A stretch of 64,000 nucleotides of DNA from Octopus vulgaris (taxonomy: Eukaryota): NCBI GenBank assembly GCA_951406725.2, contig OX597838.1, positions 43,834,001 through 43,898,000 on the forward strand, given 5' to 3'. This document shows positions 15,095 through 64,000 of this stretch, one piece after another. The notes beneath the pieces were generated by a model, which saw only the letters and a program-made list of their open reading frames with translations, was not told the origin of the DNA and searched no databases. The translations under genes and the position numbers were made by a program. Each line of letters begins with the position of its first letter. Positions within the stretch are counted from its first letter, which is position 1.

Positions 15095-15100
15095 CTATAT

Positions 15101-15690
15101 ATAATAGAAATATTAAAATTACTAAGTCTCTCTAAAGGAGATTACGGCAGCGTTACTGGATATTAATAGTTATCGCCATACTAATATGGCAGTCTATAAA
15201 TATAAGACTAAAGCTGTCGCTGATTAGCTCCAAGAAGCCATCGCCTCTAGCTAGCTATATGACACACGAACCTGCGTCCATTACAACCTTCAAGCAGGGG
15301 AGGTCAGCCGCTTCACCTTGCTAGTCAGACATCTGCAGACGACGTTTCAGGGTTGTTGCCCTCTATCAATGCAGCGTAGTCAGACCCAGCAGGTGTCGCT
15401 ACTGACCGTCTGTTCGAAGATTTTATTTACCTAGTTACAGTGGAATACATCCACTTGTCTTCAATAATAGAAATATTAAAATTACTAGTTTCTCTAAAGG
15501 AGATTACGGCAGCGTTACTGGATATTAATAGTTATCGCCATACTAATATGGCAGTCTATAAATATAAGACTAAAGCAGGTTCGTGTGTCATATAGCTAGC
15601 TAGAGGCGATGGTCTCTTGGAGCTAATCAGCGACAGCTTTAGTGTTATATTTATAGACTGCCATATTAGTATGGCGATTACTATTAATAT
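15101..15690. mobile_element. Family H1 copy: partial tandem (363 bp period) plus inverted segment, within (TA)n
   Basis: 15101 recurs at 15464. The inverted piece spans ~15575-15690. An HHR-like motif lies on the minus strand at 15333-15374. Confidence 0.8.
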
Positions 15691-16146: not shown

Positions 16147-16468
16147 TTATATATATATGTATATTTTATTGTAATTTATTTTTTTATTTATTTATTCTTA
16201 TCTTATAATACTTTTTATCTTATATTAAACTTTTAAATACTTTTTGATAGTTATATATACTCTTTCACTCTTTTACTTGTTTCAGTCATTTGACTGCGGC
16301 CATGCTGGAGCATCGCCCTTAGTCGAGCAAATCGACCCCGGGAAATATTCTTTGTAAGCCCAGTACTTATTCTATCGGTCTCTTTTGCCGAACCGCTAAG
16401 TGACCGGGACGTAAACACACCAACATCGGTTGTCAAGCAATGCTAGGGTGACAACCACAGACACACAA

Positions 16469-16521
<53 letters not shown>

Positions 16522-16671
16522 CATATATACGACAGGCTTCTTTTCAGTTTCTGTGTACCAAATACACTCACAAGACATTGGTCGGCCCGGGGCTATAGCA
16601 GAAGAATCTTGCCCAAGATGCCACGCAGTGGGACTGAACCCAGAACCACGTGGTTGGTTAGCAAGCTACTT

Positions 16672-18841
16672 TATTTCAAAACATTTGCCATAAAGGCAGT
16701 ACACAGATTAAGTTAGCTTTGCGGGCTGGACAAGGACATTAATGAAGTGAATGATAATGAAAGAAAGATGATAAGGATGGGAGAAGACAAAAAGCGCCCG
16801 CCGACTTTCGCTTCTCTAAAACATTGTTCTTTTTAAAGATAAACACAAAACGAGGTATTAAACCTCTTACAATTTTTCCAATTTTTGGACTTAGCAGTCC
16901 ATTATTACAAAACGAGGTATTAAACCTCTTACAATTTTTCAATTTTTGGACTTAGCAGTCCATTACTAATAATAACAGTTCAATAATTACATATCGTCCT
17001 CGAAATAGCTTGTGCCCGCGCCCTCCACCATCAACCACGCCTCCCTCAGAACGTAATCAAGTTCCGAGTTTGCGTTGCCCGGGACCAAGTTATAATCTTC
17101 ATTGAGCTCCTTTAGCCCAAGCGTCACGTCGAACGCCACGGCCTCCACAGCTACCTGCGGAGGCCATTCGGGGTCCTGTGTGAAGGCTAAAGGTGCTCCC
17201 TTGTGGTGCTCTTCCATCACCTTTTCAATTTCACCTCCTCTATAGAAGAGGACCAATACGTTCAGTTCTTTCGTTGGCGGCACAGTTCCCGCCAACGGTA
17301 TTCCTTCTCTTGTCGGTGGCACAACCCCAACCGACGTAGTTCCGGGACATTCCGGTTCTATGTCACTGACAGCCGGCAATGTCCCGTTTTTCTTCCTCTT
17401 TTTCTTTTTTTTTCCCATTTCAACTGAGGGAGGGTGCGTCTCCTCCGTGGCCGGAAGATTCGCCTTCCTCTCCTCATCCCTATTATCCTTTGGTGAGCAC
17501 CCATTGTTGCTCACCTTCCTCTTTCGGCCTCTGTTTGAGGAGTCCTCTGCTTTCTCGGCCGTTATCATTCCCTCTTCTAGAGGGGTTTTACTTAACTGTT
17601 CCGGGATCCTATTTTGTTCCCGGGGACAGTTCTTCTTTATGTGGCCGGACTCCAAGCACCGATGACACTTAGGGGGGCGACCCTCAAGCATCACCGGGTA
17701 CCTGCACCCAGCCATTTTCAAAAAATCTGGAAGAACCAGATTGGCTGATTGGGTCCACAAGGTCAAAATTGCTTTTGACCCAACCCAAGCAGCCGCAGGA
17801 AGAACTTTTACATTAAGGAGCTTAGTTTCGCTGCCACCCAGACCCCGGCGGATAGTCTCCTCTATCCACTCGGGTTCTATGTCGGGTGGCAGCCCGCAAA
17901 TCCAAGTTTTCATCAATTTCTTTTTTTTGTACGTGGGTAGGAATAAGATTTCCTTACCCTCCAGGGGTTTGCTAGCAAATTTGCAAGCCTCTTCAGGGGT
18001 GTCAAATAGCAACCACACCGTTGCATATTTGACACCCCTGGAAATGAATTTAATTGTTGGCAAATACTCTTCCAACTCCTTTTCAATTGCCGTCTTTTCG
18101 AATAGGGCGATGGTGTCGAGTGCCTTGGAGTAGGTTCTCAACACCACCGTCCTATCTTCACGGTCTTTTAACCACTTTTTAGGCGGTATGATCTCCCATT
18201 CCAAAAGTTTGTTATTTTTCATTGCCATGTTTTTTTGTTTTTTTTTAAATGTATTCAAAATAAAATTAAAAAAGGAGAAGAAAAGGAAATCAGAAGAAAG
18301 TCACGGTGAAAAAGGGAGAAAGTCAAATAAAGTTAAAAAGAAAGTCAATAACACAGCAAAAACCGTCTGGCCATTCGGTACTCCCGGCCTACATTGAACC
18401 CAGAACGCCGCAACTGGAACACAACTTCCGCAAAAATTGGTGTAAAATTGGTAAAAATTGTTCAAACTTCGGAGGCAAAACACTCTCCTATATAGCAGTT
18501 TTCACAATTCTTAAAGTTCGTCACAGCACAATACAATTCTCATAATTAGGCGAGAAAAATATTCACTCAATTTATCGAAGACGGATACGCCCCCCAAAAA
18601 TTTTCACAATTCAGCGAGAAAAATATATTTGCCACATGTCGGCAGAATCAGAATTCTGAATCCAGTAGGACTTCCTGCCTGTAAAAAACAATCCTCAACA
18701 AAAACTCCCACTGGAACCAGAAAACAGAATCTTACCTTACATGGGGCTTCCAAGATTTTCAATTCAAGACGGCTTCAAAAGCACGTCTTCACCGCTTCAG
18801 TGCCAAACACACCACTGACTCGCACATGCGCAGAAGCAACT
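16672..18841 (-). mobile_element. ORF1-only non-autonomous L1/Tx1-type element, copy 1 (2170 bp, 15 bp TSD)
   Basis: TSD gttagcaagctactt at 16657-16671 and 18842-18856. Structure: ~600 bp 5' UTR, single ORF, ~310 bp 3' UTR ending in AATAAA. No RT or endonuclease. Confidence 0.85.
16987..18222 (-). CDS. Tx1/L1-type ORF1p (gag-like nucleic-acid-binding protein with one CCHC zinc knuckle), ~411 aa, intact
   Basis: CHRCLESGHIKKNC (CX2CX4HX4C) preceded by EGRPPK, an RRM-like N-terminus and a Lys-rich NLS-like tract. The start ATG chosen is the one conserved in copies 2 and 3 (MKxxxxLEWEIIPPK). Confidence 0.85.
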   Translation of the reverse strand: MKNNKLLEWEIIPPKKWLKDREDRTVVLRTYSKALDTIALFEKTAIEKELEEYLPTIKFISRGVKYATVWLLFDTPEEACKFASKPLEGKEILFLPTYKKKKLMKTWICGLPPDIEPEWIEETIRRGLGGSETKLLNVKVLPAAAWVGSKAILTLWTQSANLVLPDFLKMAGCRYPVMLEGRPPKCHRCLESGHIKKNCPREQNRIPEQLSKTPLEEGMITAEKAEDSSNRGRKRKVSNNGCSPKDNRDEERKANLPATEETHPPSVEMGKKKKKRKKNGTLPAVSDIEPECPGTTSVGVVPPTREGIPLAGTVPPTKELNVLVLFYRGGEIEKVMEEHHKGAPLAFTQDPEWPPQVAVEAVAFDVTLGLKELNEDYNLVPGNANSELDYVLREAWLMVEGAGTSYFEDDM

Positions 18842-19178
18842 GTTAGCAAGCTACTTACCACACAGCCACTCCTGCGCCTATATATCTAATAAAAATGAAT
18901 AAATAAATAAATAACAACAAAAAAAATATATATAAATTAATAATTTTTAATTTTTAACTTTAAATTTAGAATTTTATATTTTATATTTTTTGTATATTAT
19001 ATTAATTTTATTTCTATGTTTTGGTTCATGATTTTCACTGTTTGATTTGCCTAATAGTGGTTTTATCTCTAATTTATATATATATTTATACTGTAAAATT
19101 AGATTTAATCCTAAATCTAATTTTTCCCTGTAAGTTTGGATTTACTCCATAATATTACTATTATATATATATATGGAT

Positions 19179-21042: not shown

Positions 21043-22406
21043 GAACTAGGCATGCCGTGGTTGATGATGCGCAGACACGCGCTGAGACTGCGACATCTCA
21101 TGCTCTTCGTAGACGACGGTGAACAGGTGTGGTCGCCGTTTGTGGGGCACGCTTTCCCGCAGCTCGTCTCTATGACCGAACTGCAGTCGTGGATCAAAAA
21201 GAGGCCGAGGAAGGGCGAATGGCACCGCGAGTGTCGCGTTGCTCTCATGCAACTCTGCTGTCCTGGGTCGACCTTGAGTGACTCCATCACAACCAAAGCA
21301 TTCTATAGGGGATTAGTGGAGGGGAGGTACGACGACGAGCTCGGGGCGAACCTGGACGTCGACGAGGAATACCTGACCCGCCTGTTCGGGACGACTTTCG
21401 GGCCATGGCCCATGGATAACCTCCAGAGATCCTTGGCCTGGCAGTGCTACCGAGAAGCGTTACCCGTTCGGGATAAGCTCTACAGACACGGCTCGAGAAA
21501 CACGGGGCCGACCTGCCCAAGATGCGGTCAGAGCGACGAAACCGTTCTGCACGCACTAGTGCAGTGTCCAACAATTTCCGACCTGTGGGCTTATGTCGAA
21601 CAACTGCTGTCACGTGTGGGACGAGTCGGTTTATGAGCTGAGTCTATCGTTAATATTGTCACGCCTCCTTCCTTCAAACGGGAAGGAAGAGCTATTTTCA
21701 TCATCCTTGTGGCTATGGCGAAAGAATGTGTCTGGTGGACACGTCTGAAAGGATTGGAGACAAACACTTTCCTCTCTGGTCAATCTCTCATCAACTTCTT
21801 CAAGTACCACTTGAAAAGGAAAGTGAGAGTAGAGAGGCAAGTTTTGTCTAGCGAATGTTTTAAAAAAAGATGGTTGAATGTAGCAAGAATGGCACGTATG
21901 AATGACGAGGCCACCTTGAGCATAATCCTATGAACCCAGAAATTGAAAACAGAGGGTTACCCACTTGCAAACAAATGTGGTAACATATAACAATATTGAC
22001 CAAGGTTACCGTGGTCTTTTTCGTAGGCTTTTCTTCCCACGGATAAACCTTACTTGCTTTCCCCTTTACACCATATATCATGACACTGTGATACACGATC
22101 CCTATTGATCGTTTTTTTCCCTCTTCCCCATTTTTCCTCTTTTTTCTTCTTTTTTCCTTTTACTTTTCTTTTGTTTCTTTTCCTTTTTCCTCTTTTTTCT
22201 TCTTTTTTCCTATTTCTTTTCTTTTGTTTCTTTTCCTTTTCTTTTCCTTTTTTCTCCCTTTTACGATCCCTTTTGATCGAAAACCTACGCCACATTTTTT
22301 TTATTCTTTTGTTTTTTGTTTTTTGTTTTTTCATCCCCCAAAAGAAAAACTCTACCTTGTAATTTGTCCCATCTGTGTGCAGCCCTGTGTGGCCAATAAA
22401 GAAACT
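21043..22406 (+). mobile_element. 5'-truncated Tx1-clade LINE (ORF2 C-terminus plus 3' UTR) inside a (TATC)n tract
   Basis: Highly similar to ORF2 from 53018 onward, including the CPRC..ETVLHALVQC zinc motif. Premature TGA at 21634. AATAAA at 22395. (TATC)n lies on both sides (20947-21042 and 22407-22566). Confidence 0.9.
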
Positions 22407-23669: not shown

Positions 23670-26015
23670 TTATTTCCTCAGATTTGCCATAAAGACATTA
23701 TAAAGATGGAAACAAGTGTGGCGGGCTGGACAATAACACAAATGAGATGAAACGATGAACGACATAATGATATTAATGTGAGAGGCAAATCGACGCCCGC
23801 CGGTCAACCCCCGCCCTCGGTAACAACGTACTTCTTTCTTTTTTTCTTTTTTTGAAACAAAAAAACAAACAGCAACACAAAGGAAATAATGAACCTCTAA
23901 CATTAACATCAATCGAGGCACTAAGCCTCTTATCAATCTATATTGTTCATGAGGTAACAAACCTCTACACTGTTCACAATATTCAATAAAAATTCAAAAA
24001 CAAAATGAGGCGCTAAGCTTCTTTCCTTTCTTTCCAAGCTCGGAACTTTCAATAACACTGAAGCTTTTCAACCTCTTATCATTATTCCTCCTCAACATCG
24101 CTTGTGCCCGCATACTCCGCCATCACCCACGCCTCATTCAAGATTAAAACGGGTGCCGTATCGGCGTCGCCCGCCCACAAGTGATATTCCTCATTGAGTC
24201 CCTGCAGCCTACACATCACGGGCAACGTTATGACCTTCATAGCTATTTGCGGACGCCATTCGGAATCCTGTGTGAAGGCTAAAGGTACTCCATTATGGTG
24301 CTTTTCAACCACATTTTCTACCTCTCCGCCTCTATAGAAGAAGACCAATAATTCGTCTTCTTCCGGGGGCAGGATATCCAATTCTACTGTTGGTGGCAAA
24401 GTTCCCGCCAACGGTGTCTCTTCTTCTGCCGGTGGCACAACCCATACCGACGTGGTTCCGGGACATTCCGGTACTATGTCACCGACTGCCAGAAATGTCC
24501 CGTTTCTCTTCTTCTTCCTCTTTTTTTCTTTTCAAATGAGGGGGGTGTGCGTCTCCTGCGTGACCGGAAGATTTGCCTCCCCTTCCTCATCCCTAGGATC
24601 CTTCGGTGAGCATCTATAACTGTTCCTTCTTTGAGGAGTCCTAAGCCACCTGGGCTGCCTTCATTCCCTCTTCTACAGAGGACTCAATCAACTGCTCAAA
24701 GAGCTTACTTTGTTCTGGGGACAGTTTTTATTTATATGGCCAGGCTCCAGGCACTGATGACACCTGGGGGGGGGGGGTGACCCTCAAGAATCACCGGGTA
24801 CCTGCACCCGGCCATTTTCAAAAAATCTGGAAAAGCCAGATTGGCTGATTGGGTCCAAAGCGTCAAAACAGCTTTTGACCCAACCAAATCAGCCGCAGGA
24901 AAAACTTTCATATTAAGGAGCTTGGCTCTGCTGCCACCCAGACCCCGGCGGATACTCTCTTCTATCCACTCGGGTTTTATTCCGGATAGCAACCCGCAGA
25001 CCAAACCGCTTGTCAACCTCTTCCCACAATACGTGGGAAGAAACAAAATTTTTGCCCTCTAAGGGCTGGGTCGCAAATTTGCGCGCTTCTTCAAGGGTGT
25101 CAAATAGCAACCACACCGTTGCGTATATTACTCCCTCCCTGGAAATGAATTTCATAGTTGGTAGATACTCTGCCAACTCCTTTTCAATTACAGTCTTTTC
25201 AAATAGGGCGATGGTATCCAGCGACTTAGAGTAAGTCCTCAACACCACCGTCCTCTTCACGGTCTTTCAACCACTGTTTGGGTGGTATAATTTCCCACTC
25301 CAAAGCATTGTCTTTTTTCATTGCAATGTTTTTATTTAACAGTTCGAAAATAGTTCAAAATAAAACTTAAGAAGAGAGAAGAAAAAGAAAGAAATCAAAA
25401 GAAGGTCACAATAAAATGGAAGGAAGAAAAGGAAAACAAATCACGAATAATGAAAGTCAAAAAAGGTTTAGAAGAAAGAAAGTCAATAGTTCAAAAACAC
25501 AGAAAAAAATTTCCCCTTCCACTAGGTACTCCCGGCCAAGGCCGAATCCGGAATCCCACAACTGGAACACAACTTCCACAAAAACTGGTATACATGTCGT
25601 TCAATCTACCGCGGCAAAGACACTCCCCCAAAACAGCAATTCTCACAATTATTTCAAAAATTCACAAAAAGTGAACAAATTTTTAGGACTCCCCCAAGTA
25701 ACAATTCTCACAATTGAGAAAAATATTCACTTAACATGAATCACTATTTTGGACCGGGATACGCCCCCAAACAATAATTCTCACAATTAAGTGAGAAAAA
25801 ATATTCACTCCTCTGCAGGCAGACTAGAGTTTAGAATCCTGTGAGGACATCTTTCTTGTCCAAAAAATAACAAACTTCCACTGGACCCCCCCAAAACAAG
25901 AGTCTTACCTTACAGCAGAGCTTCGAAATTCTTCAATTCAGGACGGCTTCAAAAGCACGTCTTGACAGCTTCAGTGCTTCAGTGCCAAATACTACACTGA
26001 CTCGCACATGCCCAG
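23670..26015 (-). mobile_element. ORF1-only element, copy 2 (frameshifted ORF1), in a degraded SINE A head
   Basis: TSD tgggaagcaagcttct (23654-23669) and tgggatgcaagcttct (26016-26031). ORF1 pieces at 24082-25320 are homologous to copy 1. Confidence 0.85.
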
Positions 26016-26228
26016 TGGGATGCAAGCTTCTACCACACAACCATACCTGTAAATATGCATGTAGATATATGTATATATAGGCACAGGAGTGGCTGTGTGG
26101 TAAGCACCTTGCTTACCACACAGCTTGCTTCGTGGCTCGTTGGGAGAGTGTCTCCTCCTATAGCCTCGGGCCGACCAAACCCTTGTGAGAGGATTTAGTA
26201 GACAGAAAATGAAAGAAGCTCGTCGTAC

Positions 26229-51341: not shown

Positions 51342-51520
51342 CTCTTTTACTTGTTTCAGTCATTTGACTGCGGTCATGCTGGAGCACCGCCTTTAGTCGA
51401 GCAACTCGACCCCGGGACTTATTCTCTTTGTAAGCCCAGTACTTATTCCATCGCTCTCTTTTTGCCGAACGTAAGCACACCAGCGGGGACGTAAACACAC
51501 CAGCATCGGTTATCAAGCAA

Positions 51521-54369
<2,849 letters not shown>

Positions 54370-62000: not shown

Positions 62001-62562
62001 CTGCTGTGGTTGTTTTGGCTCCGAGTTATTATTGTTTGAGCAGATAGAGCCATGACCAAAGGTGCTTACGTCACGACCCTGTTCTCTTTGGACGGTGATT
62101 CTGGAATGAACTGAACGAACGAGTCATTCATTTTGTTTTTGTTTATTTGAAGATGTAGAGAGAAGAGGGAAGAGAAGAGAGAGGGAGAATAAATATATAT
62201 ACAGGTAGAGATAAAAAGAGTGAGAGAGAGAAAAAGAGAAAGTAAGAGAAAGAGTTACACAATTAGATGCAGAGGGAGAGAGAATTAGAAAGAGAGAATG
62301 GGAGAGATGGGTAAAAAAAGAGGAAATCAGAGCCAGTGTGCCAATGTGTAGAATGTGTGTGTGTGTGTAAGTGTGCGTATGTGTCTTTGTAAATGTTCTT
62401 AACTGTAAATCACGAAGAGGATTTATTGGATTGTAGAGAGGCTGGTTAATGTGTAGCGCTAAGGAATCTCTGACAGAGCAGACCATGGTCCAAAAGACAT
62501 TCCGGTCATGACAACCCTGTCTTCTGAGTGGATTTGGTAGACGGAAACTGAAAGAGGTCCGT

Positions 62563-62597
<35 letters not shown>

Positions 62598-62602
<5 letters not shown>

Positions 62603-63015
62603 TAGTTATCGCCATACTAATATGGCATTCTTAAAAATAAGAATAAAGCTGTCGCTGATTAGCTCCATGAAGCCATCGCCTCAAGCTAGCTACTTGACAC
62701 ACAAACTGCGTCCGTTATTAAACCTTCGAACAGGTCTGTCTACGCTGCATTGAGAAGGGGCAACAACCCTGAAACATGTCTGTAGCTGTCGGACTAGCAG
62801 GTTGAAGCGGCTGACCTCCCCTGTTCGAAGGTTTAATAACGGACGCAGTTTGTGTGTCAAGTAGCTAGCTTGAGGCGATGGCTTCATGGAGCTAATCAGC
62901 GACAGCTTTATTCTTATTTTTAAGAATGCCATATTAGTGTGGCGATAACTATTAATTTCCAGAAAGGCTGTTGTAATCTCTTTTAAAGAGACTTAGTAAT
63001 TTTAATATTTCTATT
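62598..63015. mobile_element. Family H1 copy with inverted head and U3-A8 HHR
   Basis: 62598-62733 is inverted relative to ~62820-62957. HHR gctgca-TTGAGAA-gggg..ccct-GAAA-catg-TC-tgtagc at 62744-62786. Confidence 0.8.
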
Positions 63016-63042
63016 ATATATATATACATATATATATATATA

Positions 63043-63273: not shown

Positions 63274-63311
<38 letters not shown>

Positions 63312-63314
<3 letters not shown>

Positions 63315-63475
63315 GTAGGAGTGGCTGTTTGGTAAGTAGCTTGCTTGAACCACATGGTTCCAGATTCACTCCTACTGCATGGCACCTTGGGCAAGTGTCT
63401 TCTACTATAGCCTCGGGCCGACCAAAGCCTTGTTAGTGGATTTGGTAGACGGAAACTGAAAGAAGCCCGTCGTAT
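63312..63475 (+). mobile_element. SINE A, 5' half (uninterrupted target site)
   Basis: ggcgtaggagtggctgtttggtaagtagcttgcttgaaccacatgg... Confidence 0.85.
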
Positions 63476-64000
63476 ATATGTATATGTATATATATGTATG
63501 TATGTATATATATAGTCAGAAAATACAGTGTACATTTAAACAGACGAGGAATCCACTCATGGGATTCAACACGCTAGAAAGAACAGCTAGGTTCTATAAC
63601 CACAAAATTAGGGATACAATTCGACAGGAACGAAATGAAAAAATAAAAACATTTTACCATACGACAGAGTAAACAACTAAAAGAGTAAAAGAGTTTTTGT
63701 GTGTGTGTAATAATGAAGTCCAAGTAAATAATATTTGGTTTGACTTCATTATTTTGAGGCCTGAGCAACGATGCATTTGGTTTCGCTCTCTCTCTCTCTC
63801 TCTCTCTCTCTCCTCCTTTCTCAGAACAAGGACATTTCTCCAAATATCCAAAGAATTATAATTCCATTCATCTTGCTGAACCGTATTTTATTTCCGTGCT
63901 CATCAGCGATATCTTACCGATTAGCTTTAACCGACACAAACCACAAGTCTTGTCTTCCATATCACCAGTATTCTTGTCTTCCATATCTTTCAACCTTTAG

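Follow-up and report, generated by a model that had tools for sequence, protein, structure and literature searches.

Several LINEs that carry only ORF1 have been described, among them HeT-A, HAL1 and Ag-Sponge (PMC5786205, PMC5753468; these and the articles below are cited for the parts of their text that were available). In Drosophila, telomeric families of this kind are widespread, and new ORF1-only lineages can arise from them (PMC13534243). The persistence of such LINEs is an open question, and work on it has been confined almost entirely to the telomeres of Drosophila and to HAL1 fossils in mammals. No Tx1-clade example appears among the ORF1-only LINEs in the available parts of PMC5753468 and PMC5786205. 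Families of the Tx1 clade target piggyBac, Mariner, Harbinger and LTR elements, U2, 5S and microsatellites, and the non-autonomous SINEU-3 rides Tx1-Mar (PMC4494074); the introduction and section 15 of that survey hold no SINE target. Both SIDEs and the annealing of target RNA have been described (PMC3414825, PMC7265360). In Octopus vulgaris, 80 L1-Tx1 families have been counted (PMC13282606), and neither 'target' nor 'nested' is mentioned in the available part of that article. Term searches of the available texts of PMC8869645 and PMC3706591 found no mention of SINE targets, and likewise none of 'SINE' in two articles on Dada. We found no description in the literature of a SINE-head target with an ORF1-only rider; Repbase and Dfam entries and subscription journals lay outside this scope and could already note the target.

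Here we describe an element in a 64,000-nt stretch of O. vulgaris DNA (the window). It is very probably a copy of an ORF1-only non-LTR family that inserts at a single base of a SINE head, and that is likely copied in trans by a 5.4-kb L1/Tx1-type LINE inserting at the same base.

Structure of the window element

The element occupies 2,170 bp on the minus strand (16672-18841) and is bounded by a 15-bp duplication within the head of a SINE; the exact 15-mer occurs twice in the whole window (16657-16671 and 18842-18856). Its sole ORF (16987-18228, minus) is intact and encodes 413 aa. No RT, endonuclease or ORF2 was found in the 2,170 bp, and there is no poly(A) or A-tail, the 3' end (...GAAATA) running straight into the duplication. 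The host SINE head (18857-18878) and body (16262-16656) align to uninterrupted SINE copies in the window, such as 627-813 and 63304-63513 (85-86%, blastn). The initial annotation, which had reported an insert of this length with one intact ORF, no RT or endonuclease and no poly(A), whose removal restores a SINE, is borne out on each of these points. The parts of the locus and two older relatives are given below in window coordinates.

16262-16656, minus: host SINE body and tail with a B-box-like motif at its start, interrupted by the element (blastn against uninterrupted window copies)
16657-16671, minus: right (3') target-site duplication, 15 bp, which follows the host SINE subfamily (position 13 is linked to a SINE body marker)
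16672-18841, minus: ORF1-only non-LTR retrotransposon, 2,170 bp
16672-16707, minus: terminal ~36 nt common to the element and its candidate autonomous partner (78%)
16845-16968, minus: 62-bp tandem duplication in the 3' UTR, common to many copies
16987-18228, minus: ORF1, 413 aa, with predicted RRMs at residues ~14-103 and ~104-183 and a CCHC knuckle at 187-202
18229-18841, minus: 5' UTR, 613 bp, swapped for an unrelated one in a sister subfamily
18842-18856, minus: left (5') copy of the 15-bp target, its last bases family-typical in full-length copies
18857-18878, minus: host SINE head, with an A-box-like motif ending in TGTGTGGT
23671-26016, minus: copy 2, an older relative with a broken ORF1 and an imperfect 15/16-bp duplication, hosted by an older SINE variant
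32941 (about)-34295, plus: copy 3, an older relative with its 5' junction in a SINE head and its 3' part missing

The terminal ~36 nt of the element form a hairpin (4-bp stem, 5-nt loop) followed by AAATA, and an AATAAA at the 3' end needs the first two target bases for its completion. The 5' UTR may act as a promoter. Copies 2 and 3 share 73% and 74% DNA identity, respectively, with the window element, start directly after the TGTGTGGT head motif in the SINE's orientation, and both have a broken ORF1. They had been annotated initially as sitting at the same place and in the same orientation, copy 3 by its 5' junction only; this holds for both, but the duplication given for copy 2 proved to be imperfect (15 vs 16 nt, with one deletion and one mismatch).

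Elsewhere in the window, a repeat with inverted copies at 1-590 (1-188 vs 380-567, 98%), which is also present at 15100-15690 and 62600-63020 (window 62500-63020), is possibly a MITE-like element.

Target specificity across the genome

Counts were made across the 2.8-Gb genome, and those from exact patterns are lower bounds. Directly after 322 of the 350 exact element 3' ends lies the AAGWAG of the SINE target, while a reversed-pattern control gave 0 matches. The exact 6-mer is missing next to the other 28, two of which were inspected (L202 is one of them). When the 350 are taken by their order on the contigs, one of the first 30 is reversed and the other 29 lie at the target in the orientation of the SINE, some of them degenerate. 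At the other end, a search with the 5' 143 nt yielded 269 candidates, and of the best 40, which were scored, 38 lie in a SINE head with a target copy, two lie behind a sister-element 3' end and one target copy, and none lies elsewhere. All 30 loci from a 3'-end search run on into the SINE target; as these were best-scoring matches, exact patterns were counted as well. Across all families, the strict forward pattern detected 574 filled 3' junctions and the reverse-orientation pattern, which differs in length, detected one. With 58,747 exact empty target sites in the genome, site occupancy is roughly 1%. A young SINE variant is overrepresented among the filled sites, and this may reflect age instead of preference.

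The element family and the candidate helper LINE described below sit at one single base of the octopus SINE head. Preference for a target sequence, a trait of the Tx1 clade, is thus found at the SINE site. This agrees with the initial view of the SINE as a target-specific landing pad, and the opposite outcome considered there, with most copies outside SINE heads, did not occur at either end of the element.

It is unlikely that the true target is instead a multicopy host RNA gene (tRNA), with the SINE head struck only through resemblance. Tx1 families do target RNA genes such as U2 and 5S (PMC4494074), and the octopus site lies between A- and B-box-like motifs, identified by eye only. However, every inspected flank continues into the SINE or a sister element, variation in the target follows the SINE subfamilies, whether old or young, and the head is not recognised as a tRNA: ARAGORN predicted no tRNA genes in the window and none in 30/30 empty-SINE loci, and two SINE heads compared with Rfam returned no tRNA. 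The tRNA origin given for the head in the initial annotation is a visual resemblance.

ORF1 is maintained by purifying selection

The only Pfam match on ORF1 was a weak zf-CCHC at residues 187-202 (16.7 bits, below the 20.8 cut-off). All top structural matches to its predicted fold (mean pLDDT 88) were RRM proteins, covering residues ~14-103 and 104-183 (Foldseek E about 1e-4; VIA Z 9.3, rmsd 2.7 over 82 residues), and the C-terminal half is low-complexity and basic/acidic. With two RRMs and a knuckle, ORF1p is predicted to package its own element RNA.

Pairwise dN/dS was estimated with NG86 over the first 205 ORF1 codons. The ratio is 0.08 between the window element and two young subfamilies, 0.08-0.18 among young subfamilies and 0.10-0.12 against a second ORF1-only family, from which dS is saturated (about 1.8-2.1). 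It is higher against older single copies (0.3-0.57), and also in the C-terminal half. Purifying selection acts on ORF1 (dN/dS about 0.1), as determined by a comparison that the initial annotation had suggested. There are 24 distinct copies with a near-full open ORF1, of which the 23 besides the window element were selected for long frames; ORF1 is broken in all 39 other copies picked by the window element's 5' end.

A word-based homolog search with ORF1 returned two proteins, both from O. sinensis, and a HMMER search returned 53, of which ten were looked up and eight were named, all octopod. Octopod proteins annotated as uncharacterized or 'EPM2A-interacting 1-like' (P0001, P0003, P0005, P0006, P0007, P0009, P0011, P0015 and P0020) match the ORF1 family and are probably retrotransposon ORF1s, a warning for the reading of several 'uncharacterized' octopus proteins. 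Contigs from four sequencing runs (four organism labels) cover parts of the element interior; they are blind to RNA ends, strand and level, and SINE words inflate their shares.

An autonomous LINE at the same site

Of 74 elements parsed at both junctions, 12 are of the helper type. The other 62 are of the ORF1-only type; all of them lack an ORF2 match, and 60 are 2.1-2.6 kb long. Among 251 loci, 169 match ORF1 at 40% or more, and four of the 169 also match ORF2; three of these matches come from a tandem helper upstream (two of them at the same place) and one is a weak, unrelated match on the opposite strand. The copies are therefore not mostly ORF2-bearing, an outcome that the initial annotation had considered.

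The candidate helper was found upstream in one of the tandem cases (L140), where a SINE head and the same 15-bp duplication bound an element of 5,442 bp; its ORF1 encodes 466 aa, and its ORF2 has Exo_endo_phos, RVT_1 and zf-RVT domains (Pfam). An autonomous LINE with the rider's target and 3' terminus, proposed in the initial annotation as something to look for, is thus present in the genome. The pattern for the helper-type 3' junction has 117 matches genome-wide; of 30 loci cut from these, 19 have an RT upstream, and the remainder are the second ORF1-only family, truncated copies and other types. A search with the helper endonuclease gave 81 full-length matches at 94% or more (hand count) and 14 frames of at least 1,133 aa. 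All of 13 close copies retrieved end at the target; the SINE head was found at the 5' end in 12, and both ORFs are intact in three. Three more divergent elements (L185, L187 and L188) occupy the SINE site too and are further candidate helpers, so that the partner may differ between subfamilies. No SINE head was found within the fetched stretch near the distant relatives L189-L191 (61-65% endonuclease identity) or L186. On one contig, three helper endonuclease matches with a spacing of 5,455 bp (G000:C9:2667450, 2672905 and 2678360) probably mark helpers in a tandem of three.

The nearest solved protein to the helper ORF2 is human L1 ORF2p (E 4e-67, vs 1e-19 to R2), with which the endonuclease aligns along its whole length. 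Judged by its sequence, which has an APE endonuclease, an RT and a C-terminal zinc-binding motif, the helper is a LINE of the L1 group. No named Tx1 sequence was among the relatives returned for ORF2, and atlas and cluster look-ups gave no clade name; we regard the helper as a putative Tx1 element on the basis of its architecture and target specificity. The SINE is probably moved by something other than the helper, since its tail shows no similarity to the helper.

The window itself contains a 5'-truncated L1/Tx1-type LINE (51520-54200) with an open 752-aa RT frame, and a fragment of the same type near 21052-21636. The RT frame (51640-53898) was rejected as the helper, as it is 64% identical to the helper ORF2, ends at (TATC)n and has no SINE-head junction.

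At the DNA level, the last 36 nt (78%) are the only notable match between element and helper, and there is none at the 5' end. The 4-bp hairpin and AAATA are found at the 3' end of all families at the site except the degenerate L187. The ORF1 proteins of element and helper are 28% identical and fall on separate, fully supported branches in a tree, in which the clade of the element also holds the second ORF1-only family (48% identical) and O. sinensis P0001. The element is not a bipartite deletion derivative of the present helper, which is ruled out by the lack of 5' DNA similarity, the low ORF1 identity and the separate branch. Mobilisation in trans by the helper is likely, given the shared target and the shared 3' end.

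We consider it improbable that the ORF1-only copies are ordinary internal-deletion derivatives of some active or recently active autonomous LINE, with ORF1 intact only through youth. Such deletions do occur, as one family member (L196) is internally deleted to about 90 nt, the ORF1 of a third ORF1-only type (L141, a single copy seen) groups with that of the helper, and a two-ORF relative may exist beyond the 150 of 12,031 protein-search candidates that were scored. However, the branch that holds the ORF1 of the window family, another ORF1-only family and an O. sinensis protein is long, separate and fully supported, synonymous sites are saturated between the two ORF1-only families at a dN/dS of about 0.1, and the few ORF2 co-matches are all explained as neighbours.

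Several families share the site

The SINE site is also used by one or more other ORF1-only families, and mixed head-to-tail arrays form. L141 (G000:C10:101175300-101185200, minus) has at least six consecutive 3' junctions from three ORF1-only families with one target copy between each; an identical additional T in some of its spacers suggests that part of the array may have been duplicated locally. Mixed pairs of helper and rider are found at L140, L148 and L149. A young sister subfamily has an ORF1 about 95% identical to that of the window element and an unrelated 5' UTR. In another subfamily (L136, L137, L139 and L221), which is likely recombinant, the 5' part of ORF1 is only about 70% identical to the window element and the 3' 630 nt are 95% identical. 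The sharing of the site by several families goes beyond the initial annotation, as does the behaviour of the left duplication described next.

Independent insertions and the origin of the left duplication

For the two copies of the target we compared 54 young elements (of the 74 parsed, seven were dropped for duplicated loci or duplication indels, and nine of subfamily b and four old ones were counted apart). Twelve of them have T at position 13 of the right duplication, and 11 of these 12 have A on the left; the combination of right A and left T does not occur (sign test p=0.001). The right base tracks a SINE body marker and hence belongs to the host. Helper 5' junctions carry A in 60 cases and T in 4 genome-wide, against 15 and 5 on the right side in a sample (p=0.03), and subfamily b has its own left variant in 4/9. 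Since the left and right copies sometimes share rare variants at positions 7 and 11, the crossover point is variable. In full-length copies, the left duplication therefore ends in bases that follow the element family, not the host SINE, which is genomic evidence for element RNA overwriting part of the apparent target duplication. The perfect 15-bp duplication reported initially stands as an exact 15-mer present twice, but its left end is not simply a copy of the host target. The 15-nt stagger is nonetheless real, because one truncated copy (L207) has a perfect 15-bp duplication of a rare target variant.

The family was amplified by retrotransposition, as seen in its duplications, its 5' truncations and at least 350 3' ends; 5'-truncated copies of 36, 37 and 473 nt lie in intact SINE heads. 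Median distances for elements and their host SINE bodies are 0.6% and 9.5% (15 copies), 2.5% and 11.8% (27 copies) and 3.5% and 27% (9 copies), and those for helper copies and their host SINEs are 0.8% and 7.0% (n=12); duplicated loci (L038, L126, L127) and atypical ones (L043, L121, L122, L132) were excluded. Mantel tests of element against host-SINE distances revealed no correlation (p 0.11-0.84). Host SINEs that are far more divergent than their elements, and uncorrelated with them, indicate that the copies entered different SINEs independently. That SINE and insert are instead one composite unit, amplified by the SINE's partner LINE from a single ancestral insertion that fixed the position, is extremely improbable: most copies are full-length with SINE on both flanks, filled heads and bodies are less varied than empty ones (head mismatches 26/636 vs 58/360) and the left duplication is partly family-typical, but host SINE bodies are 5-16 times more divergent than the inserts, truncated copies and unrelated families occupy the same base, and tandem stacks have a single target copy between their members. 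The same divergence, and the truncated copies in intact heads, dispose of the concern in the initial annotation that the SINE head might be part of the element.

Three unusual arrangements were seen among the loci. L196:1430-1521 is a SIDE-like mini-element of about 90 nt with the family's 5' and 3' ends and a 15-bp duplication. L125-L127 (G000:C31), three filled SINE loci that are almost identical and lie on the same small contig, probably reflect a segmental duplication or a duplicate in the assembly. At L150/L151:1440-1590 (G000:C1:111116887-111116972), two short 3' ends meet in opposite directions within a single SINE head, as would be expected if reverse transcription had been primed from each strand of the near-palindromic site.

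A proposed model for insertion and comparison with known systems

For an ORF1-only family that is copied in trans by a LINE with the same SINE-head target, we propose the following course of events. The helper endonuclease would nick the two strands 15 nt apart in the SINE head, and ORF2p would recognise the 3' hairpin of the element RNA and prime on the nick. The element RNA probably reads through into downstream SINE sequence, as suggested by the tail-less exact junction and the completion of AATAAA by the target, and this would explain exact junctions without poly(A). At its other end, the RNA probably starts inside the upstream target copy, so that the cDNA end could anneal to the second nick and overwrite the last bases of the left duplication. 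Every insertion would regenerate the target, allowing elements of different families to stack head to tail.

A broader picture can be offered only tentatively. The octopus may harbour a long-lived partnership like that of HeT-A and TART, set away from telomeres, in which an L1/Tx1-type LINE and several ancient ORF1-only riders dock at a self-regenerating site in the promoter region of the most common SINE of the octopus. Target sequence on both RNA ends would give full-length, base-exact integration, and insertion would split the A and B boxes of the SINE. A guild of retrotransposons would then parasitise, and might limit, another retrotransposon, and the distinct ORF1p of the riders may serve the helper.

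In the octopus, a young helper and young riders, each with some intact copies, occupy a single defined 15-bp site, which makes the role of the rider ORF1p and the minimal 3' signal (about 36 nt) directly testable. The SINE head joins the safe landing sites of target-specific LINEs, and the helper offers a predicted sequence-specific endonuclease/RT with mostly full-length insertions. ORF1-only LINEs and Tx1 families that target other transposons were already known; the combination of a SINE-head target and an ORF1-only rider, which we did not find in the literature, is apparently new.

The target-specific riders of rDNA offer one comparison. R2 and the R2/R1 SIDEs likewise include target-specific non-autonomous riders, and their RNA is processed out of the target sequence that flanks it (PMC3414825). 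The octopus element, 2.2 kb long with a selected ORF, differs from the short, non-coding SIDEs; the R2/SIDE systems also have a ribozyme, and their target is rDNA, not a SINE head. HAL1 (L1 clade) and Ag-Sponge (CR1 clade) are also non-autonomous LINEs that keep ORF1 without ORF2 (PMC5753468, PMC5786205); unlike them, the octopus element has a strict single-base target, no poly(A) and only about 36 nt in common with its helper.

Tx1L (in Tx1D) and Tx1-Mar (in Mariner-N4_AMi) resemble the octopus helper in being L1-group LINEs that target another transposon, and SINEU-3, the rider of Tx1-Mar, resembles the octopus riders in being non-autonomous on the same target, with duplications of about 15-16 bp and tandem insertions around one duplication (PMC4494074). 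The octopus target differs in being a SINE head, not a DNA or LTR transposon, and unlike SINEU-3 the octopus rider encodes a selected protein and belongs to one of several rider families. HeT-A and the ORF1-only telomeric elements of Drosophila (Jockey clade, with TART/TAHRE) share with the octopus element the presence of ORF1 only, an ORF2 supplied by a co-targeted family (here presumed from the shared site and 3' end) and mixed head-to-tail arrays (PMC13534243). They differ in that the octopus elements target 15 bp inside a dispersed SINE, with duplication of the site on cutting, and not a chromosome end, and in that the octopus helper is L1/Tx1-type, with no host function indicated. By analogy, the octopus system would work like HeT-A with TART, set on a transposon target of the Tx1-Mar kind, which here is a SINE head.
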